A stretch of 53,618 nucleotides of DNA from a virus (IMGVR_UViG_2563366968_000008); one strand, 5' to 3'. Counted from the stretch's first letter, positions 5,182 to 27,615 are shown. Program-made: numbers and translations. The notes: generated from the sequence alone by a model not told the origin.

Positions 5182-6289
5182 AATATTCAGGGTAATAAAC
5201 AAAGCGCCCGATTTCCCCATGATCAGGACTGTAAATTATTACCGCAGCCAGCCGACGCGACCGCCATCCGCCATTTGTTGAATAAGCGTCTTTGCCAGCT
5301 AACGTGCCGTGATACTCAACAACGCCTAACGATGATTCAATCAGCCGTTGGTGATGCCAGTGTCCGCAATGAGCGTAAACCGCCGACGACTTGCCGAAAT
5401 CCTCCCGCCAGTCAGAGACGCAGGCAGACAACAAATTTTCTGGTTTTTTGATGGTGTGTCCGTGGTGGTAAGCAAGGAATGTTTTGCCGTACTGTGTGTG
5501 GTGAACGATAGCAGGGGACACATCAACCGTTACGCGCGGTTCATCTTCGTAAAAAGCCGCCAGCGCCGCACGTAGCCAGATCATCCCTGATTGGTCGTGA
5601 TTACCGGATAATGTCTGGATCTCGACATACTTATGATTTAGTAACATCTTCCCGACCGCACGCCTGACCGACCGGATCGCCACGTAAACCAGTTTTGCGT
5701 AGCGTGAATCGCAATCCAGGACGTGATTGCTTGATGGCGTCACTGGTAACAGGCCGTCAGTGTGAAGAATATCACCTCCTAACAACAAAACAGCCTTTTC
5801 AGACATTGGTGCCGCGCCCACCGCGTAGTCGAAGAAGTCATTTAACACACGTTCGGCGATCCCGGTGTCGTAGCTCTCACCGCATTCAGCTTTATGAGCA
5901 AGCGCACCGATATGCAGATCAAATACCGGATAAAGGGCCAGGCTTTTTTGAAAATCAATTTCAGGCACTGGCACAGCCTCCGCGCGTGGCATGTCTTCCG
6001 TGAATGCGTCGCGGGCAGCTTCCATTAGCCTTTCCATTTCATCACGGTCACGGGCAGTTTTAATCCAGCGCATGACCGTATTACCAGCCTTATCGACAAG
6101 AACAGATTCACCAGTAACGCCAAAACCAGGCGCGCGACGCGTTGATATTAAACCGCGTTTCGCCAGTTTTGCGCCTAGCCGCTCGACGTTGCGTTTTGAC
6201 ATGCCATATTTTTCAGCGATCTGCTTGTACGTTAAACCGTTGTTATATTCAGCGATCAATTGTTCATCGCTGATCTTTCTTTGCGACAT
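5171..6289 (-). CDS. HTH domain fused to calcineurin-like metallophosphoesterase
   Basis: N-terminal LTYKQIAEKYGMSKRNVER HTH; C-terminal DLHIG, GGDILHTDG, GNHD, HHGH, GHWHH phosphoesterase motifs. Confidence 0.6.
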   Translation of the reverse strand: MSQRKISDEQLIAEYNNGLTYKQIAEKYGMSKRNVERLGAKLAKRGLISTRRAPGFGVTGESVLVDKAGNTVMRWIKTARDRDEMERLMEAARDAFTEDMPRAEAVPVPEIDFQKSLALYPVFDLHIGALAHKAECGESYDTGIAERVLNDFFDYAVGAAPMSEKAVLLLGGDILHTDGLLPVTPSSNHVLDCDSRYAKLVYVAIRSVRRAVGKMLLNHKYVEIQTLSGNHDQSGMIWLRAALAAFYEDEPRVTVDVSPAIVHHTQYGKTFLAYHHGHTIKKPENLLSACVSDWREDFGKSSAVYAHCGHWHHQRLIESSLGVVEYHGTLAGKDAYSTNGGWRSRRLAAVIIYSPDHGEIGRFVYYPEYSIL

Positions 6290-14915: not shown

Positions 14916-15149
14916 ATGGCCTTATTCAATATGTCAGAGCCGCAATTTAACGCCGTAAAGACTGCCGCCCGCGCCGCGCTTTCGGCCTGCAAAGCGGAGG
15001 TAGAGAAGAACGGCTACAGCGATAAAGCCACGCGGCTGATACTCGACAAGCATTATCGCAAGGTCGCCCCGCTAATCAGCATTGAGCGTTTTGTGTGGTT
15101 GGTGGGGTATCTGAATAACCGCTGGGGGACGGAGCAGGATTATTTCTAA
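14916..15149 (+). CDS. Hypothetical protein (77 aa)
   Basis: ATG with GGTGA SD, in frame within ORF 14757..15149. Confidence 0.4.
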   Translation: MALFNMSEPQFNAVKTAARAALSACKAEVEKNGYSDKATRLILDKHYRKVAPLISIERFVWLVGYLNNRWGTEQDYF

Positions 15150-15159
15150 GGGGGACGCA

Positions 15160-15699
15160 ATGAAAAATGATTACGGCGGCAGTCATACGCCGAAAGAAAT
15201 AAAAGACCTATGGCAGACGCCGAAACCTGTTTTTAGAGGAATGGATCGGGAATTCGAATTCGTCGCGGACGTGGCGGCAAACAAGGCAAATGCATTAGTT
15301 CCGCGATATATAACCGAAGAAATGAACACGCTTAATTACCCGTGGGGAGCGGTGGCGATGCCTGGTGAATATGTCTGGATGAATCCACCATATTCTAATC
15401 CGGGACCATTCGTTGATAAGGCGGCGTTTGAACACCACCGAAATCATATTGGCTGTGTAATGTTATTGCCAGCCGACACTTCTGTTAGTTGGTTTATGAA
15501 CGGCGTGGAGACGGCAAATGAATGCCGATTAATCACGCGCGGGCGGCTGGCGTTTATTAATGCCGCGACGGGTAAACCAGCAAGCGGAAACAATAAGGGG
15601 AGCTTGTTCTTGATCTGGCATCCACGGTGCAGACATGAATGTATTTTCACGCAGATAACACGTAAAGAGCTATATGCAAGAGGTGCAGATAATGACTAA
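15160..15699 (+). CDS. Phage DNA N6-adenine methyltransferase (Dam-like)
   Basis: WQTPKPVF, NPPYS (DPPY-type catalytic motif) and FEFVADVAANK segments typical of phage Dam family. Confidence 0.7.
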   Translation: MKNDYGGSHTPKEIKDLWQTPKPVFRGMDREFEFVADVAANKANALVPRYITEEMNTLNYPWGAVAMPGEYVWMNPPYSNPGPFVDKAAFEHHRNHIGCVMLLPADTSVSWFMNGVETANECRLITRGRLAFINAATGKPASGNNKGSLFLIWHPRCRHECIFTQITRKELYARGADND

Positions 15700-17441: not shown

Positions 17442-17587
17442 CGTCATTGTGTGATGTGGATCACATAATGGCGCTTTATTGTTTGTTCGCATGTATCCGT
17501 TTTGTATACTTCAAACAAACAAAATGCTCTTTAAAAATCCGGTAACGCTGAAATGCGTAAAAATCACCTGAAAAAGGAGAGAGCATT

Positions 17588-17764
17588 ATGTCTTTTGAGA
17601 ATTACCAATGGCATGACGACTATGAACGGGAAAGTGTCATGCGTGCAATGTGCAGTGTATGCAGCACGAAGAAGGGAGAATGTAACGAGTGCAACGAATG
17701 CGTAGATCGCTTGCTAAGGGCTGGACACGCCGAAAGGCTGAACGAAACAGAGAATCAAGAATAA
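17588..17764 (+). CDS. NinF-like small Cys-rich protein (58 aa), not in ORF track
   Basis: AAGGAG SD 8 nt upstream; YERESVMRAMCSVCS...CNECNEC pattern resembles lambda NinF. Confidence 0.45.
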   Translation: MSFENYQWHDDYERESVMRAMCSVCSTKKGECNECNECVDRLLRAGHAERLNETENQE

Positions 17765-18782: not shown

Positions 18783-18966
18783 CAATGAAAAACGAAATTA
18801 AAGATCTGCAAATAGACATTCAGCGCGACGAGCGTGATTTAGCCACAGTTCGACAAATTCAGGCTTTTCACATGTGAGAATTACTTGCACTGAAAGAGTT
18901 TGAGAGAAAGCTGGTGCAATCAATTTCTGATCGTAAACGCCTTATTGCTCGTTACGGGGGCAAATA

Positions 18967-19695
18967 ATGAATTTAGAATCCATTCTAAAATTCCACTTTC
19001 CCAAATCACCGCGATTGTCAGACGAAAGCAGGGGAACATCACCTGATGCACTTAATACGACGGATGCGCTTACCGCCGCTGGTATGGCGCAATCGCGCGT
19101 AGCGCTTGGTTACAGCGCTTTTTTGGGGAAGATGGAACTATCGCAAACTGAAAAACACAGGGCCGTAGTTTTGCTTACAGAGCGTTTAAGAGCTATGGCA
19201 AAAGATTACGAATACGTTATGGAGTTGGACGATGAGCGACGCAATGATCTTATTATTCTTGTTGCCGTTTTCGCGTTTCGGGATTACTGCCAGAGTGCGG
19301 CGACCGAAAAGGTTTGCCCTAAATGCGGTGGAAACGGGCTTTTACCGCATCCATGCTGCGAATACACATCAACGGTTTGTTCGCGGTGCAACGGGAAAGG
19401 CTACGTTAAAAACCATTGCCAGCGGTGCAAAGGGCGCGGCGAGATACCGGATAAAGCAGCCAGTGAAGCAGCGGAAATGCCAGTTTTCAAAACGTGCCAG
19501 CATTGTGGCGGGCGCGGGTACTCGCGTTTCCCGGTAGATCTTGTCCGACAGGCGGTTAATCAGCTTGTTTTCCCGGTAAGCCGATCAACATGGTGGAAGA
19601 AATACAGGGTTTTCTATGAGGACGCCATAGCGGAGCTATTTAAAGAAGAAGCCCGCGCGGAAAGCGAAATTAAACGAGTGACACGGGGTGAATAA
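18967..19695 (+). CDS. Q-like late antiterminator candidate with DnaJ-type zinc finger
   Basis: Four CxxCxGxG repeats (CPKCGGNG, CSRCNGKG, CQRCKGRG, CQHCGGRG); position after ninG/rusA and before lysis genes matches lambdoid Q. Confidence 0.45.
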   Translation: MNLESILKFHFPKSPRLSDESRGTSPDALNTTDALTAAGMAQSRVALGYSAFLGKMELSQTEKHRAVVLLTERLRAMAKDYEYVMELDDERRNDLIILVAVFAFRDYCQSAATEKVCPKCGGNGLLPHPCCEYTSTVCSRCNGKGYVKNHCQRCKGRGEIPDKAASEAAEMPVFKTCQHCGGRGYSRFPVDLVRQAVNQLVFPVSRSTWWKKYRVFYEDAIAELFKEEARAESEIKRVTRGE

Positions 19696-19880
19696 TGACA
19701 AGTTAGAAATAAACGATCAGTTTGCCGTTATATTGTTCGAAGATAAAACTGGCGGCGCATGGTGTAAGAGAGTCACTGGTGCAGAAGCGCGTTTAATATT
19801 AGGTATGGCAAGCGCGTTAAACGAAGGAGAATTACCCGCCATCCCTGTTAAACCAGTCCACATCTATAAACGGGGCGACG

Positions 19881-20231
19881 ATGATGAAAATAATTAATAT
19901 TGGGTGGCTGTATTGCGAAAACTGCGACGACGACGGCATGGTTGTTAAAACTGAAAAAGGCTGCGGCTTCATACTGTATCAAGATGATAAATTTGTTTGC
20001 CCGCGATGCGGTGGTCGTGGTGAGATAGAGATCGTTGATGATATTGCTACCGCACCCAAGCCATCGCGCATTGTCCTTGATGAAAAAATAAAAATTCATC
20101 CTGATTTATTACAGCAAATTATCGATCACGTATCGGCAGCCGCAATCTATAGCGATAACAATTATCAGCGTGAAATGAACGTCAAACGTGCGCTTAATCA
20201 GTATTTTAAGGGTGACGATGATGAAGCCTAA
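19881..20231 (+). CDS. Small zinc-ribbon protein (116 aa)
   Basis: CENC...CPRCGGRG motifs; ATG start. Confidence 0.45.
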   Translation: MMKIINIGWLYCENCDDDGMVVKTEKGCGFILYQDDKFVCPRCGGRGEIEIVDDIATAPKPSRIVLDEKIKIHPDLLQQIIDHVSAAAIYSDNNYQREMNVKRALNQYFKGDDDEA

Positions 20232-20493
20232 ATTAAAAGAACATGTTTACCGCCAGTTGGTTAACGAGTTGGCTGACACGGCCCGCCATTACGCCGGAAC
20301 ACAACAGCTACGCGGTCGGCTATCTTCGGTTGTTAACCGTTATATTGATGCTGGATGCCATCGCAAAGGTGAAATTACGATGGACGAGGCAATCAAGCGC
20401 CGGACGGCTGAATGGTCAGTGAGTAATACCGGATTAACCGGATACATTGAAGGCTATAACGACTGTTTACAGGATCATGGCGATGGCAAGTAA
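20218..20493 (+). CDS. Hypothetical protein (about 91 aa)
   Basis: ATG with AAGGGTGA SD, in frame within ORF 20188..20493. Confidence 0.4.
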   Translation: MMKPKLKEHVYRQLVNELADTARHYAGTQQLRGRLSSVVNRYIDAGCHRKGEITMDEAIKRRTAEWSVSNTGLTGYIEGYNDCLQDHGDGK

Positions 20494-20736
20494 AGATCTA
20501 CATTTAAACCTGAAAGGAGAATACTTTTACGCCATCCGGGCGGGAAAGAAGGTGGAGGAATACCGACTTTATAATGACTATTGGCGTAAACGCCTGAAAG
20601 GGCGGGAATATGAACGCCTGATAATCAAGCTGGGGTATCCAGCCAGCCACGAAACACACCGGATCATAAACCTGCCTTATTTCGGGTATGAAGTGAAAAC
20701 TATCACACATCCATTGTTCGGCCCTGATCCTGTTAA

Positions 20737-21931
<1,195 letters not shown>

Positions 21932-21986
21932 TTAAGGTATTCGCAATTAAATGTGATGTGAATTGGATGTTAAGGTGGGGTGAGCA

Positions 21987-22202
21987 ATGAAAAAAGCTGG
22001 CCTATCAATTAGCCGTGTATTGTGCGGTGACGAAAACGAGATCCGCATAGAAATTAAATTTAGCACAGGTAAAGAGATAATCCTTTACACGACACCTGAA
22101 AACCTGACGCTGGCGCTTACTGGTAAATCTGAAACGCCGTGCGACGTCCGGTTGCGCAATATTGAAATTAAGGAATTAAGGAAGGTGAAAGATGAAAAGT
22201 AG
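21987..22202 (+). CDS. Hypothetical small protein (cargo array)
   Basis: ATG with AAGGTGGGGTGAG SD; ATGA overlap with restored ASCH gene stop. Confidence 0.45.
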   Translation: MKKAGLSISRVLCGDENEIRIEIKFSTGKEIILYTTPENLTLALTGKSETPCDVRLRNIEIKELRKVKDEK

Positions 22203-22392
22203 AATGAAACGCATGGTAAGAGCTTACGATAAGGCTTTAATGGTTTTTGATGATTTGCGACGCAATAAGCGTGAGCGTCGTAAATGGGCGCGTTTATTCG
22301 CGAAAGAATGGCACGAAGACGATGCGACAATCGACTGTCAAAAAGACGCTGACGAATTAGCTGACGATAACGTTTATTATATGATGTGGTGA
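22192..22392 (+). CDS. Hypothetical small protein (cargo array)
   Basis: ATG overlapping upstream gene; basic N-terminus. Confidence 0.4.
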   Translation: MKSRMKRMVRAYDKALMVFDDLRRNKRERRKWARLFAKEWHEDDATIDCQKDADELADDNVYYMMW

Positions 22393-22396
22393 CAAC

Positions 22397-22762
22397 ATGC
22401 AAATAATCATTGATTACCTTTGCCATGCAGCAAATACACTTTTCGGTTTTTATCAACAACCTTTCCTTAAAGAGTGGGATTCGATGTTAAACGATATCCT
22501 CGACAAAGGATTAATAATGGAGGTTGACGAGCTTACAATCAAAATTAATTATGAAGGTGAAGAATATCAAATTTGGGTGGGTAATAGATGGTATTCATAC
22601 GGTCATATTTATTCAATTGGTGGTAAGTTCATTAAAAGAAACCAGGAATTCAGACCGCGCTTCCGCACAATGCGCCGACTACATAACCTGCATATGAATC
22701 TATTTGAAGACCAGGAAGCACGGGAACTATTCAAGATCTACGGAGATAAATCATGGAGCTAA
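22397..22762 (+). CDS. Hypothetical protein (121 aa)
   Basis: ATG start; operon packing. Confidence 0.45.
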   Translation: MQIIIDYLCHAANTLFGFYQQPFLKEWDSMLNDILDKGLIMEVDELTIKINYEGEEYQIWVGNRWYSYGHIYSIGGKFIKRNQEFRPRFRTMRRLHNLHMNLFEDQEARELFKIYGDKSWS

Positions 22763-22983
22763 AAATCTGGAAGGCTATCGACGTAGTTGATAATGAGTTA
22801 AGTATGTTTGCCACTGACGGAAAGCGCGCGGTGATCGCCACATGGACGCGTAACCATGATGATATCGCTTTTCGTCGCAAGGCTGCGGAGTGGCTTTTCT
22901 CTGATGGCGGCTACACGATGAACATCGCCCAGCTTGCCAGAATGAAGGATGAAAAGCTGGTAGACAGCTACACAACTGCATAG
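22753..22983 (+). CDS. Hypothetical small protein
   Basis: ATG overlapping upstream stop. Confidence 0.4.
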   Translation: MELKIWKAIDVVDNELSMFATDGKRAVIATWTRNHDDIAFRRKAAEWLFSDGGYTMNIAQLARMKDEKLVDSYTTA

Positions 22984-22993
22984 CGGGGTAAAT

Positions 22994-23227
22994 ATGCGTA
23001 TCTATGAGCACAAGCGGGATAAAACCCGCTTTTTTGTTCGTGCTGGCGTTGCATACCAGTATCACGAATGCGGATACATTGAGGCGCTTGCTTACGATCT
23101 GGATTTCGAGCAGGAAAAAGAATGGTTCGATTTCAAAATATACCGCAAGCGTAAACCAACGCGCTACGAGCGCCACGCTATCCGGGACTTTTTAATCAGC
23201 ATTGAGCGCTGGGGGACAGAAGAATGA
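22994..23227 (+). CDS. Hypothetical small protein
   Basis: ATG start. Confidence 0.4.
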   Translation: MRIYEHKRDKTRFFVRAGVAYQYHECGYIEALAYDLDFEQEKEWFDFKIYRKRKPTRYERHAIRDFLISIERWGTEE

Positions 23228-23502
23228 GAACAAAGAAAACAGCAGATCAGAAAGCGTTAGTTATCGCTACAACGGATGTATCGTTATTCACGAAGGGTGA
23301 AGAGATAGATCTTAAATTGCTTTTTGGAATGTTTGAGCCACACGAAAAGCCGTGGTTCGTACATGAAGATAAACAAGGCAATATGCGCGTAGTAGTGCCT
23401 GACAGTAAAAGCGATATATTTTTTGGTATTCCAGATCCGTTACATGACGGTGAGATGTTGGCGGTGTTGTTGATCTCTGATGCTGTTACTTATAAGGGGT
23501 AA
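23224..23502 (+). CDS. Hypothetical small protein
   Basis: ATGA overlap. Confidence 0.4.
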   Translation: MRTKKTADQKALVIATTDVSLFTKGEEIDLKLLFGMFEPHEKPWFVHEDKQGNMRVVVPDSKSDIFFGIPDPLHDGEMLAVLLISDAVTYKG

Positions 23503-23504
23503 AG

Positions 23505-23732
23505 ATGAAAGTCAAATTCTTGCACGATCACGGTTATCCGTCATTGAAACAGGTTGTTGGTAAGGTCGTTAATGTCGTTCATAGCGATGATGTCACTTGC
23601 ATGATTAACGGTGCTGATTTAATCGCCGCTGGCGCTGATGATCATTACATCAATCCGGCGTGGTCGTATACGTTCAGCCTGGGTGACTTCGTTGGCGACA
23701 AGGGGCGCGGGCTGCAAGTGGTCGAGGGTTAA
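23505..23732 (+). CDS. Hypothetical small protein
   Basis: ATG start. Confidence 0.4.
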   Translation: MKVKFLHDHGYPSLKQVVGKVVNVVHSDDVTCMINGADLIAAGADDHYINPAWSYTFSLGDFVGDKGRGLQVVEG

Positions 23733-23736
23733 TATC

Positions 23737-23985
23737 ATGGACGTTTACGAAGATCTATACCTTCAGACGAATACCCACACTTTTTATTTTTTGAAAAACG
23801 GCGTTGTATATCGCAGCGACGACGGGATGGTAATGAAGGAGTGGTTATTTAAGCGTAAAGACCTACTCGACGATCTGGTTTTTGCCGGGATATTTCGTAA
23901 ACGTCCGGCTAACCTGGAAGAAGAAATGTTGATTGAGGTAATTAAAAATGAAAATCAGGGTAAGTTATTTCCGGGCGAAAGATAA
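23737..23985 (+). CDS. Hypothetical small protein
   Basis: ATG in frame within ORF 23638..23985 with GAGGG SD. Confidence 0.4.
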   Translation: MDVYEDLYLQTNTHTFYFLKNGVVYRSDDGMVMKEWLFKRKDLLDDLVFAGIFRKRPANLEEEMLIEVIKNENQGKLFPGER

Positions 23986-24199
23986 GGCAACAGGAAAGCA
24001 GATGGCGATCCTGGTTAACGAGGCCAATTATATGTTTGTACTTCGGCCGTGGTGCATAGCTGACTATAACGATGATTATCGTCGTCACGGTGCGCGGAGT
24101 GCGGTAGGCATGAAAGGCTGGCAACCGCGCGACATGGAAAACTATTGTGAATGGAAATTAGTAGCAAAATACACTGTCGATTATAAAGGTGTTTTCTGA
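23948..24199 (+). CDS. Hypothetical small protein
   Basis: ATG start overlapping upstream gene. Confidence 0.4.
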   Translation: MKIRVSYFRAKDKATGKQMAILVNEANYMFVLRPWCIADYNDDYRRHGARSAVGMKGWQPRDMENYCEWKLVAKYTVDYKGVF

Positions 24200-24202
24200 T
24201 TA

Positions 24203-24571
24203 ATGTTACTTTCACGGAAGATATGCGAACCAGTGGGGCAAATGACCCCATCAAGCCAGAAGGGTTTAATCATGAAAAGCGATAAATTCATTGCGTGCTG
24301 TTTTGTTGAAGTGCCTAAAGGTGATGCCTTCTGCGATTATGAATTTAAAGACAGTTGGGGAAAATCTCATGTTGTAGTTGGCAAGCGCGGAGACTGGTTA
24401 TACATAACAGACGACGACATGATTTTTACTGCAAACCAGTTATTCAAAATTAAGTCAGAAAATAGTGAAACGCCACTTTGCAGCATGTTTAACATGCATT
24501 ATCACTCACTATTATTGTTAAAACAAGATGTTATAAATAAAGCGCGTAGCTTACCTGGTGCGGAGTTTTAA
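24203..24571 (+). CDS. Hypothetical protein (122 aa)
   Basis: ATG start. Confidence 0.4.
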   Translation: MLLSRKICEPVGQMTPSSQKGLIMKSDKFIACCFVEVPKGDAFCDYEFKDSWGKSHVVVGKRGDWLYITDDDMIFTANQLFKIKSENSETPLCSMFNMHYHSLLLLKQDVINKARSLPGAEF

Positions 24572-24594
24572 TTTATTACGAAGGGGAATAATAA

Positions 24595-24918
24595 ATGTCT
24601 AAATTTATCAGCGTTAAGGTTTTTCGTGGCAATTTTCCAGAAGATAAAGAAATTGGACAATTCGCAGGTGAACGTGGCGTATGTTTCCGTGTAGCTACTG
24701 AAGACGATGCGCACGTTAAATGCTTTCACGTATCTGAACCGCCTTTTAATGCAGACCATCTTGAAGACCTGAATAGAATTAAAAGCCTTATTTTTGCCTA
24801 TCTGGCGTTCCCTGGCATAGCTAATGCTGATGTGGGATTGGTTGGAGCTGAACTAGTGGCAGAATATAAAATGACTGAAGGAGAAGAAGGGGGAATTAAA
24901 ATTGAGCGCATCAAATAA
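24595..24918 (+). CDS. Hypothetical protein (107 aa)
   Basis: ATG with GAAGGGGAA SD. Confidence 0.45.
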   Translation: MSKFISVKVFRGNFPEDKEIGQFAGERGVCFRVATEDDAHVKCFHVSEPPFNADHLEDLNRIKSLIFAYLAFPGIANADVGLVGAELVAEYKMTEGEEGGIKIERIK

Positions 24919-25156
24919 GGTATACAAAATCAGGTGTAAAGGTGAATACCCTGGCTTTACGACTGGTTGCGAATACCTGGGCCACATTGGATACGGTCCT
25001 TTCGGTGAGTTAGGGATGAATACGATTGATGACGATGGCGACAGCAGGACGCTTGGTCTTGATTCTGATGATTTCGAATACATCCCGCCGATAACTTACC
25101 GCGACGTTGATGATTTCATGGCTGAACATGACGACGAGGACGATGATTATGATTGA
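24902..25156 (+). CDS. Hypothetical acidic small protein
   Basis: ATG overlapping upstream stop; Asp-rich C-terminus. Confidence 0.4.
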   Translation: MSASNKVYKIRCKGEYPGFTTGCEYLGHIGYGPFGELGMNTIDDDGDSRTLGLDSDDFEYIPPITYRDVDDFMAEHDDEDDDYD

Positions 25157-25349
25157 ATGCCTTATTGCTGTGACTGTTTTGCTTTATATCGCTGGCGCGA
25201 TCCTGATGTCATGTTTTATTAAGTTTAGCGGTGCCGAACATGGTGGACTTGAGATTCCTTTTTGGCCTGTGACTGTGTTTATCGCTTTCTTCGACGCTAC
25301 GGCAGAGCAAATCAGGCGAGCCATTAAGGAGCGTAAAAATGGGAAATAG
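25107..25349 (+). CDS. Small membrane protein
   Basis: Two hydrophobic segments; overlaps neighbours. Confidence 0.4.
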   Translation: MMISWLNMTTRTMIMIECLIAVTVLLYIAGAILMSCFIKFSGAEHGGLEIPFWPVTVFIAFFDATAEQIRRAIKERKNGK

Positions 25350-25536
25350 CGACCATGAATATGATGGCGTTTATCAGTCATTGGCTACGCGAGCTTATTA
25401 CCGCCTCGAAGGTGAGCACGTTTTGATGCGCCTCGGTAGTCTTGATCGGTGGCATGAGCCATTTTTACCTATGACAGCGAAAGAAGTTATCACGATGGTT
25501 AATCATAGATACTGGCGCAAGGTTGGTGATTTGTAA
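25339..25536 (+). CDS. Hypothetical small protein
   Basis: ATG overlapping upstream stop. Confidence 0.4.
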   Translation: MGNSDHEYDGVYQSLATRAYYRLEGEHVLMRLGSLDRWHEPFLPMTAKEVITMVNHRYWRKVGDL

Positions 25537-25598
25537 CCATAATCGCGCATAAAAAACAAATAGATTAAAATATTTCCTAACAATGCGAAATTGTAATT

Positions 25599-25621
25599 GC
25601 CCGGCCACGCGCCGGGTTTTT
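25599..25621 (+). terminator. Intrinsic terminator immediately upstream of holin (possible tR'-like)
   Basis: Hairpin CCCGGC-CACGC-GCCGGG followed by TTTTT. Confidence 0.5.
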
Positions 25622-25641
25622 GCTTTGTTGGAGGTAAATCT

Positions 25642-25842
25642 ATGTTCGACAGAATACGGGAGGCGTGCGCGTATGTGACTGGGGCCGTAACTGCTTTTTT
25701 CGGCGCGATAACCATCAATGACATTGCCGTCTTTGTGGGTATCTTATCAACCGTAGGCACATTTGCCGTCAATTATTACTTCAAATCACAGGAGAACAAG
25801 CGAGCGCAAGAGGAACACGACGCGCGAATGGGGAATAAGTAA
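25642..25842 (+). CDS. Holin (class II-like)
   Basis: 67 aa with two hydrophobic segments and charged C-terminus; GGAGG SD; immediately upstream of endolysin. Confidence 0.7.
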
Positions 25843-25843
25843 C

Positions 25844-26335
25844 ATGATTAGCCAATCGCTGAAGAATAAGATTATTGCTGCGGCGGCTGGTGGGGCGATC
25901 GCTATTGCGGCGGTGATGGTTAAACCATTAGAGGGCGTGGAGTACGATCCCTATCGTGATGTTATCGGCGTATGGACCGTTTGCTATGGTCACACCGGAA
26001 AAGACATCATGCTTGGTAAGACTTACACGCAATCAGAATGCGATGCTTTGTTAAACAAGGATCTCCACAAAACCGCAAAAGCGATTGACCCCTATATTAA
26101 AGTCGAAATATCAGATTTTACCCGCGCGGCGCTTTATTCATTCGCCTATAACGTAGGTGCAACCAATTTCAAAACATCAACCTTATTAAAACTACTCAAT
26201 GACGGCAAGAAATCAGAAGCGTGCGCACAGCTTAAACGCTGGGTATACGCTGGCGGTAAGAAGTGGCAAGGCCTGGTAAACCGCCGCGAGGTTGAATATG
26301 CCGTTTGCGAATGGGGGGAAACGTGGACAAGGTGA
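25844..26335 (+). CDS. Endolysin, lysozyme family with N-terminal SAR signal-anchor
   Basis: N-terminal Gly/Ala-rich weak TM ([17 protein letters not shown]) followed by lysozyme-like domain (EG...D...T catalytic pattern). Confidence 0.8.
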
Positions 26336-26793
26336 AGGCGTTAATTATCGCCGCTGTTGTTTGCATTATTGCCGGACTGACCGCCGTAACATGTTATTAC
26401 CAGGGTGAGGCGGCAAGGTTACAGGAAGAAGTCACGGTAACGAAAGGCGCACTGAAAACGGCAAGTAACACTATTCAGCAGATGAAGGAGCGAAACGCCG
26501 AACTGTCAAAACTTGATAAGAGGTATCACGATGAGATTAAAGCTATCAGATCTGACATTGCCGATCTGCGCACTGGCATTGATAACGGTACTATCCGGTT
26601 GCGCGTCAACGCAATACCCGTGCGAGTGTCCGACCCCGCCGCGACCGCCAGCCGCATTGATGGAGCCACCTGCGAGCTTGATGCCACTGCTAGACAATCT
26701 TATCTATCCCTCAGAGAACAACTAAAAGAGAAAGACGCACAGATCACTGGCCTACAGGACTACATCAAAACTCAGTGTTTACGCAAAGAATAG
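26311..26793 (+). CDS. i-spanin (Rz-like); start uncertain
   Basis: N-terminal TM segment, coiled-coil-like periplasmic region; overlaps endolysin 3' end; contains embedded Rz1. Confidence 0.6.
26531..26725 (+). CDS. o-spanin (Rz1-like lipoprotein) embedded in +1 frame of Rz
   Basis: Signal peptide with lipobox LSGC, Pro-rich mature region; fully embedded in the Rz gene. Confidence 0.65.
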   Translation: MRLKLSDLTLPICALALITVLSGCASTQYPCECPTPPRPPAALMEPPASLMPLLDNLIYPSENN

Positions 26794-27072: not shown

Positions 27073-27615
27073 ATGGCTAAGGCTAAAGGCATTAAATTGC
27101 CTCAATTTAAGATCCCACTCTTTGAGCATACAACCGTTTTCTTTTGCCCGACCCGCGAGATGTTCTATGAATTTTGCGAAAAGGCAGGAATTCCGATTGA
27201 ACCTGATTTCGAGTTGGCTGGAGGATTAACGCTTACTTGCACTGGCGAGAATGGTGGTAACTTCTACGTGATCGCAGTATTCAACAATGAGTTGGGAACG
27301 CTGGTCCATGAATGCGCCCACACTACATTCCACGTTTTAAGTGATGTAGGCGTCGTGGCTACCACGGATCCTACCCATCCGGCGAATGAGACTTACGCTT
27401 ACATGGTAGGCCGTATCTTCGATGCGTTTTTCCCTATCCTAGCAGAATCAAACGAAGCACAGGTTGCAGCAATGCAGGCGGCAGAAGTCGTCGATCAGGC
27501 GCTGGAACAGGCAGAACAGCCGAAGGAAGAAGAAAAGCCAGCGAAGAAAGGTAAACGTAAGCCTAAGCAAAAAGATGCGTTAGTCCAGCGTGTAATGAGC
27601 TTTAAACGAGGCTGA
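27073..27615 (+). CDS. Hypothetical protein with HExxH motif (possible zincin-like metallopeptidase)
   Basis: LVHECAHTTFHVL (HExxH...H) and Lys-rich C-terminal tail; AGGAG SD. Confidence 0.5.
   Translation: MAKAKGIKLPQFKIPLFEHTTVFFCPTREMFYEFCEKAGIPIEPDFELAGGLTLTCTGENGGNFYVIAVFNNELGTLVHECAHTTFHVLSDVGVVATTDPTHPANETYAYMVGRIFDAFFPILAESNEAQVAAMQAAEVVDQALEQAEQPKEEEKPAKKGKRKPKQKDALVQRVMSFKRG

Follow-up and report, generated by a model that had tools for sequence, protein, structure and literature searches.

Genes between Q and the holin

The window analysed here is the whole stretch of viral DNA IMGVR_UViG_2563366968_000008, 53,618 nucleotides (nt) long, and the subject is an array of small genes that it carries between the late antiterminator gene Q and the holin gene. 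The array occupies positions 21987-25536 of the + strand (window positions throughout) and comprises 14 consecutive open reading frames (ORFs), which encode 65-121 amino acids (aa) once their starts are refined with the help of the lengths of homologues, the extent of PHROG matches, and the RefSeq/GenBank annotation of loci that are identical or related. The ORFs are listed with their occurrence among 57 loci that hold both Q and holin, taken from a sample of 12 annotated relatives and 46 IMG/VR contigs found via Q.

ORF1: 21987-22202, + strand, 71 aa, phrog_1222, in 22 of 57 loci
ORF2: 22192-22392, + strand, 66 aa, phrog 8758, in 53 of 57 loci
ORF3: 22397-22762, + strand, 121 aa, phrog 16975, in 56 of 57 loci
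ORF4: 22753-22983, + strand, 76 aa, phrog 38280, in 57 of 57 loci
ORF5: 22994-23227, + strand, 77 aa, in 56 of 57 loci
ORF6: 23224-23502, + strand, 92 aa, in 34 of 57 loci
ORF7: 23505-23732, + strand, 75 aa, in 53 of 57 loci
ORF8: 23737-23985, + strand, 82 aa, in 57 of 57 loci
ORF9: 23948-24199, + strand, 83 aa, in 57 of 57 loci
ORF10: 24272-24571, + strand, 99 aa, in 41 of 57 loci
ORF11: 24595-24918, + strand, 107 aa, in 51 of 57 loci
ORF12: 24902 (TTG start)-25156, + strand, 84 aa, in 49 of 57 loci
ORF13: 25149-25349, + strand, 66 aa, in 50 of 57 loci
ORF14: 25339-25536, + strand, 65 aa, in 55 of 57 loci

Neighbouring ORFs overlap by 4-38 nt or are separated by gaps of 2-72 nt, and a GGGG/GGAG-type ribosome-binding site (RBS) precedes nearly every one of them. 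Full-length matches to PHROG families exist for 12 of the 14, each of these families being of unknown function. Syntenic homologues exist for each ORF, and comparison with the homologues in related phages gives a ratio of nonsynonymous to synonymous substitution rates (dN/dS) of 0.05-0.44 for every one. Because of these family matches and dN/dS values, together with the RBSs and the start/stop overlaps, the 14 ORFs are genuine protein-coding genes under purifying selection. The short length of the ORFs, and the different starts that PGAP assigns to some of them, might suggest spurious ORFs in a non-coding spacer; this notion has virtually no chance of being correct, being already refuted by dN/dS values far below 1 throughout, by the full-length PHROG matches and by distant homologues (40-55% at the aa level) in unrelated phages. 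The GC content of the array (0.41-0.44) is slightly below that of much of the window (0.41-0.54 elsewhere).

A preliminary description of this DNA, made from the sequence alone, had reported 14 tightly packed small same-strand ORFs at these positions, and the ORF calls, PHROG matches and dN/dS values bear this out. Among its lengths (60-122 aa), three had been extended upstream (ORF8 has 82 rather than 115 aa, ORF10 99 rather than 122 and ORF13 66 rather than 80). Its left boundary was drawn too narrowly, since four more ORFs extend back to the stop codon of Q. The features of this left end are as follows.

Late antiterminator Q: 18967-19695, + strand, PF03589 (E-value 1.4e-30), left boundary of the array
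First upstream ORF: 19688-19897, + strand, PHROG match
Second upstream ORF: 19881-20231, + strand, CXXCXGXG zinc finger, PHROG match
Third upstream ORF: 20218-20493, + strand, PHROG match
Fourth upstream ORF: 20483-20736, + strand, N-terminal part of a phrog_625 gene, sub-threshold ASCH similarity
IS5: 20737-21931, transposase on the - strand, complete (1195 bp), TTAA target duplication at 20733-20736 and 21932-21935

Q belongs to the Q-lambda family (33% identity to lambda Q, E-value 1e-45) and carries an extra DnaJ-like zinc-finger insertion. Its stop codon, which overlaps the start of the next ORF (19688/19695), is the true start of the array. The four upstream ORFs have dN/dS values of 0.07-0.24. 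Adding them to the 14 ORFs gives a translationally coupled series of 18 small accessory genes, most of it made up by the 14, that is typical of the mEpimmI lineage of temperate coliphages.

The phrog_625 gene of the array is split by IS5, which was identified by its terminal GGAAGGTGCGAATAAG repeats, read directly, and by its match to the IS5 copies of P1 and 434. The gene is unbroken in an E. coli M15 prophage (5751-6059 of the M15 locus), and the insertion is missing from M15 and 56 other loci. IS5 lies within the operon, downstream of Q and upstream of the 14 ORFs, on which it may be polar. A kinship of ORF2 with the IS5-split gene was considered and dropped, the two being unrelated by hhalign. 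DnaJ-type CXXCXGXG repeats occur both in Q (Pfam E-value 4.9e-6) and in the ORF at 19881-20231 (E-value 1.2e-3). At 18785-18964, the window is 93% conserved with a 60-aa hypothetical ORF (183 nt) that overlaps the start of Q in relatives; an in-frame TGA replaces Arg31 of the relatives, and this copy is probably a pseudogene.

Conservation of the block among mEpimmI phages

The prophage in the window belongs to the mEpimmI group, whose members are temperate, Nus-dependent siphophages that resemble mEp021 and have been described as 'non-lambdoid' (Negrete-Mendez et al. 2025, PMC11893012). In nucleotide sequence, the region shares 85-89% identity with mEp010, mEp554, mEp044, mEp013, mEp021, mEp515 and MagusPhagus. 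When E. coli prophages are counted along with these phages, the relatives have nucleotide identities of 86-92%, and the M15 prophage of E. coli matches the region at 100%, IS5 apart.

In the 57 loci, Q and the holin are 2.0-6.8 kb apart, with 8-28 ORFs (median 21) from 47 families in between. These families are perfectly collinear: of the pairwise order comparisons, 9033 agree and 0 disagree. Eleven of the 14 window families are present in at least 49 of the loci. The flanking genes belong to the group as well: the window Q is 84-100% identical to the Q of the 57 loci, and the window holin shares 92-100% identity with that of the 12 annotated relatives. All 14 ORFs have homologues in the same order between the Q and the holin of the group. 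A block of about six families, located between ORF9 and ORF10 in most relatives, is missing from the window, and the ORF14 family is represented by one to three diverged tandem paralogues in relatives. A search with hhalign for hidden paralogy across the array turned up nothing beyond these tandem copies of the ORF14 family and a few artefactual matches where ORF calls overlap.

The block is therefore lineage-specific and semi-core, varying by insertion and deletion, or presence and absence, of its genes, and it is not a site where unrelated cassettes are swapped. The preliminary description was right in locating the array between Q (PF03589) and the holin; it went on to compare the place with the cargo slot of phages carrying Shiga toxin (Stx) genes, a known accessory hotspot. 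That comparison does not hold. The collinear order and the mostly conserved families argue against a drop-in cargo hotspot, and the block probably precedes the late promoter. Nor were foreign cassettes of the Stx type found, the tRNA and Rfam scans and the Pfam and NCBIfam searches of the block having returned nothing above threshold.

Predicted position of the late control region

The sole conserved non-coding DNA in the Q-holin interval is a segment of about 100 bp directly before the holin gene. This segment and the genes that follow it contain the features listed below.

Pre-holin intergenic block: 25537-25641, + strand, predicted late promoter/terminator module, conserved in 57 loci
Putative Q-binding region: within 25537-25641, + strand, A-rich
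Predicted -10 element TAAAAT: 25566-25571, + strand
AACAAT: 25579-25584, + strand, candidate -10-like sigma-dependent pause element, at about +1 to +6
Intrinsic terminator: 25599-25626, + strand, strong, about 20 nt downstream of the pR'-like motif, found by terminator scan
Holin RBS GGAGG: 25630-25634, + strand
Lysis cassette: 25642-26793, + strand, class II holin, lysozyme and Rz/Rz1 (PF16080, E-value 1.6e-14; M15 RefSeq annotation), right boundary of the array

The pre-holin block is near-invariant whichever ORF precedes it. Among the 34 distinct versions that the 57 loci provide, GATTAAAAT and CTAACAATGCGAAA are invariant; variation occurs in the 7-nt spacer that separates the two, in the terminator loop and at a downstream TGTAAT/TGTAAC. 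By analogy with other phages that carry Q-lambda homologues, the late promoter pR' and its terminator tR' probably lie here, after the array and before the holin. Because pR', the Q-loading site and tR' would all be part of the pre-holin block, the array would then stand between Q and pR'.

The analogy concerns the layout TAAAAT - 7 nt - AACAAT, which has parallels in three other phages with a Q-lambda homologue. At lambda pR', as checked in the sequence, TAAATT is followed after 6 nt by AACGAT; TAAATT is the -10 element of this promoter, and AACGAT is its sigma-dependent pause element at +1 to +6. In phi80, the arrangement is TAGATT - 7 nt - AACGCT; pR' and a Q site are annotated in the database record, as is a terminator that starts about 50 nt past the -10 element. 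In ST104, whose Q is the closest homologue of the window Q outside the group, TTGCAA and TATCAT, 17 nt apart, are followed after 6 nt by AACAGT and then by a terminator. The -10/AACNAT motif occurs once in the 53.6-kb window, in the pre-holin block only, where 0.19 occurrences per window are expected by chance. The terminator at 25599-25626 corresponds to TERM_5 of the mEp021 record; a terminator 't5' is among those demonstrated experimentally (PMC11893012), and the numbering suggests that mEp021 t5 and TERM_5 are the same. Since the RBS of the holin follows at once, the lysis genes can be reached only through read-through of this terminator.

It is possible, though unlikely, that pR' instead precedes the array, at the end of Q or close to it, so that the array genes would be Q-dependent late cargo, expressed with the lysis and structural genes as Stx is. 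The pre-holin terminator would then be just another terminator ignored by the Q-modified polymerase. This possibility would fit the genomic position between Q and the holin and the detection of an ORF8 homologue in mEp021 virions; moreover, a terminator inside ORF5 of mEp021 starts about 250 nt past the stop codon of Q, and in lambda tR' follows that stop codon at a comparable distance of roughly 270 nt. However, the stop codon of Q overlaps the start of the next ORF, which leaves no intergenic space, and the DNA after Q varies between phages, the Q gene of mEp021 running straight into the ORF4 homologue. For these two reasons there is no conserved non-coding DNA next to Q. A candidate late promoter within ORF4 (GATAAT at 22789, with the ORF5 terminator after it) was discarded because the critical T of its -10 element has been lost synonymously in several relatives. 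The lambda-type -10/AACNAT signature, confined to the pre-holin block, likewise favors a late promoter after the array, and the pR'-like signature and terminator at 25566-25626 would place Stx-type cargo on the other side of pR'/tR' from the array.

Three further elements were considered in the pre-holin block, of which the first two were rejected. A boxB-like hairpin (ACAAT-GCGAA-ATTGT) is not maintained, many loci having ACTGT, and a second pause element, TGTAAT, reads TGTAAC in many loci. The third concerns RNA that reads through 25571-25636, in which UAUUUCC, upstream of the predicted +1, could pair with the holin Shine-Dalgarno sequence GGAGGUA, whereas a transcript from the predicted start at about 25579 would be without this anti-Shine-Dalgarno segment. 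The resulting fold atop the terminator stem has a free energy of -30.5 kcal/mol (z -3.6). A hairpin that hides the holin RBS in this way is nevertheless unsupported: two of its pairs hold in just 16 and 21 of the 34 variants, and there is no covariation.

Transcription of the array

The genes overlap continuously from ninG through ORF14. A nutR2-like site lies directly upstream of NinF (17588-17764), which is followed by NinG, RusA, Q and the array, and nutR2 of mEp021 has been reported at the matching position (PMC11893012). Two sequence elements bear on transcription through this region.

nutR2-like site: 17525-17580, + strand, boxA-like TGCTCTTTA (17525) followed by lambda-like boxB CCTGAAAAAGG, read directly
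ORF5-internal hairpin: 23012-23040, + strand, terminator-like, with T-run, within the first 50 nt of ORF5, RNA fold z -3.6

Promoter-like sites are not above chance (14 found, against a shuffle mean of 19.4), and the promoter scan revealed no promoters flanking single genes. Intragenic terminator-like hairpins are present in ninG (17809) and in ORF5 (23012-23040). The ORF5 hairpin is conserved in 13 of 13 compared loci, and in mEp010 it contains a synonymous compensatory swap of G-C to C-G (CGG/ACC to CGC/ACG), which suggests that selection acts on its RNA structure.

From the placement of pR'/tR' after the array it follows that the array would be delayed-early. It would form the distal end of a rightward operon, in the order nutR2, ninF/ninG, rusA, Q and array, transcribed by RNA polymerase modified by the N-like Gp17. 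The modified polymerase would read past the ninG terminator and the one at the start of ORF5, whereas unmodified polymerase would halt at the pre-holin terminator. The nutR2-like site, the internal terminators, the gene overlaps and the predicted pR' are what a delayed-early block of the nin type would be expected to have, the likeness being one of operation and not of homology.

Gene products

Searches of Pfam, NCBIfam and PADLOC produced nothing above threshold for all 18 array proteins, and a PDB sequence comparison of ORF3, 6, 9, 10, 11 and 12 produced no match. The statement of the preliminary description that the products belong to no recognizable family is thus upheld, there being no match in these three databases and none against the PDB for the seven products tested; nothing shows the genes to be lambdoid housekeeping genes either. 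Its characterization of several products as acidic or Cys-containing applies in part. ORF12 is strongly acidic (net charge -16, isoelectric point 4.1); the other products are mild, each product has 0-4 Cys residues, and ORF13 is a small membrane-spanning protein. Two structure searches revealed no anti-defence fold.

Single genes of the array have homologues in unrelated phages, where they are always small hypothetical genes. ORF1 homologues are found in Dhillonvirus and in 75 records of Stx-converting phages; the one in P13374 lies in the early-left exo-xis region, beside ea22. ORF2 has homologues in Sasha-like phages of Salmonella, and ORF7 in Vequintavirinae. Homologues of ORF3 occur in Edwardsiella phages and also in P2-like prophages of Salmonella, where they lie in the early operon, flanked by cox and gpA. 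The ORF8 and ORF12 families are restricted to E. coli elements of the mEpimmI type. The Dhillonvirus, Sasha-like and Vequintavirinae hosts of the ORF1, ORF2 and ORF7 homologues are phages that we take to be virulent.

This distribution bears on whether the array genes are morons, expressed from the repressed prophage and benefiting the host by superinfection exclusion, defence or virulence. Such a role would accommodate the location, which is similar to that of morons in lambdoid phages, as well as the small membrane protein ORF13 and the slightly lowered GC content (0.41-0.44). Morons in the sense of Hendrix and Juhala, however, would be at odds with promoter-like sites below the shuffle mean, with the lack of promoter/terminator pairs flanking genes and with overlapping, translationally coupled genes in a long operon downstream of a nut site. 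PADLOC recognizes no known defence protein among the 14 ORFs (zero matches), and strict collinearity speaks against independent acquisition. Because some homologues occur in presumably virulent phages, which would have no lysogenic state, and others in early operons, and because the genes are without promoters of their own, a part in lytic development is indicated and lysogenic conversion is very unlikely.

The ORF3 family is large: an exhaustive search with a hidden Markov model found 426 clusters at 50% identity, nearly all of them stand-alone proteins of about 110-125 aa. The motifs RPRFRTMRRL and DYLCH..NT are invariant. No Pfam model exists for the family, and its longer members are also without a Pfam domain, so that domain fusions are uninformative. 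The AlphaFold2 (AF2) model of ORF3 is confident and has no PDB neighbour. ORF3 is therefore a candidate new domain family in the early operons of several temperate phage types, with a fold that, judging from the model, is apparently new.

ORF8 is a homologue of mEp021 gp41, which was found by mass spectrometry in CsCl-purified mEp021 virions and suggested to be RegA-like (PMC11893012). The RegA-like assignment of ORF8/gp41 was not reproduced: the AF2 model of ORF8, of moderate confidence (pLDDT 65), consists of a beta-rich domain (residues 1-55) and a disordered tail, and with this moderate model Foldseek gave no match in the PDB (best E-value 0.59). The presence of gp41 in purified virions, and the occurrence of ORF4, ORF8 and ORF9 in 57/57 loci and of ORF5 in 56/57, could mean that part of the block is morphogenetic, with ORF8/gp41 packaged or structural and its neighbours serving as assembly factors. 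We regard this as quite doubtful. Ssb was likewise 'found in virions' in that experiment, which suggests carry-over; the small beta domain and disordered tail of the ORF8 model match no structural protein; and the lysis genes and terminators separate the array from the structural cluster. In FFH2, a Vequintavirus, one tblastn segment (1501-2276) spans ORF7 and the first half of ORF8, and the ORF7 and ORF8 counterparts are adjacent or fused in frame in rV5-like phages too.

Proposed role of the block

The favored reading combines the lineage-specific block, its delayed-early expression, the order Q - array - pR' and host-directed products, and we give it a probability of about 0.55 as a whole. 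Its last component is the weaker one. The products may act during lytic growth as small host-directed modulators, in host takeover or counter-defence, and would be neither toxins, lysogenic-conversion factors nor virion building blocks.

Several points weigh against this reading. The -35 region of the subgroup to which the window belongs (TCGCGC) is poor, a shuffled window has a 16% chance of one occurrence of the pR'-like motif, and the promoter assignment proceeds from motif analogy. The invariant A-rich AACAATGCGAAA could be kept for pairing with the U-tract of the terminator. Polymerase modified by N or Q and coming from upstream would also transcribe the array, so that 'early only' is not implied, and the ORF8 homologue in purified mEp021 virions is a better fit to late expression. 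Finally, the searches gave no functional clue for any product, with structure models covering 2 of the 14 proteins.

A bolder version, in which the block is a dedicated host-takeover or counter-defence island, expressed with Q before lysis and encoding several undescribed effector families, is tentative. Its candidate effectors would be ORF3 and the highly acidic ORF12, the latter as a possible DNA mimic.

These results mainly correct the earlier picture: the array is conserved lineage content, probably delayed-early, and not an Stx-like cargo slot, and for this reason the block should not be prioritized as a toxin or virulence hotspot. About 10% of each mEpimmI genome consists of this block of genes without assigned function, and its roughly 47 small families provide a defined candidate set for screens of anti-defence or host takeover. 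Several of these families are common to phage groups that we take to be virulent. The analysis also yields a prediction of the site of Q action, the Q-loading site, in mEpimmI phages. If the prediction is true, small genes between Q and pR' would represent a distinct regulatory architecture for phages of the Q-lambda type. In human gut samples, mEpimmI phages are reported to equal in frequency the lambdoid phages from the same collection (PMC11893012).

Two observations were made downstream of the lysis cassette. A 180-aa gene at 27073-27615 (phrog_1365, a PHROG of unknown function, with an acidic/lysine-rich tail) lies between the lysis cassette and the terminase genes, flanked by about 280 bp and about 570 bp without large ORFs. 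From about 30937 onward (15006-15669 of the M15 locus), a gene at the portal position bears the RefSeq name 'anti-CBASS protein Acb1 family protein'; its mEp021 counterpart is called portal protein, and the Acb1 label is probably a naming artefact.

Comparison with known systems

The block is already contained in published mEpimmI genomes, and the window provides a further copy. Genes gp38-gp45 of mEp021 and their counterparts in mEp010, mEp013, mEp044, mEp515, mEp554 and MagusPhagus are homologous, share the gene order and the flanking Q and holin, and are followed by the same pre-holin block and terminator. These genes are listed as hypothetical or 'flexible', and gp41 is named as a core protein detected in virions (PMC11893012). 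The window differs from mEp021 in having 18 ORFs rather than 8 and in the IS5 within one of them.

In its organization the block resembles the nin region of lambda and P22. There, too, small and mostly non-essential genes overlap one another downstream of a nutR-type site, N-type antitermination overrides internal terminators, and relatives differ in the presence or absence of genes. The nin region, however, precedes Q whereas the block follows it, the two share no sequence homology, and the window has NinF, NinG and RusA separately, upstream of Q. By analogy, the array may be viewed as the logic of the lambda nin region extended past Q.

The Q-S region of Stx phages likewise lies between Q and the holin and contains non-essential genes. 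Its tRNAs, stxAB and nanS-p are located downstream of pR'/tR', depend on Q and are swapped by cassette replacement, whereas in the window the predicted pR'/tR' follows the array, tRNAs are absent and the genes are collinear within the lineage.

ORF1 has true homologues in the exo-xis region of lambdoid and Stx phages (next to ea22 in P13374), and ORF3 has them in the P2-like early operon, where cox and gpA flank them. These are different operons of different phage types, and they share single genes with the window rather than the array.

The late control region of phi80 is similar in having a Q-lambda homologue (32% identity to the window Q), a comparable layout of -10 element, pause element and terminator, and a holin gene downstream. 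In phi80, however, this module begins about 40 bp after Q, whereas 5.9 kb of genes, including IS5, lie between Q and the corresponding predicted module in the window.

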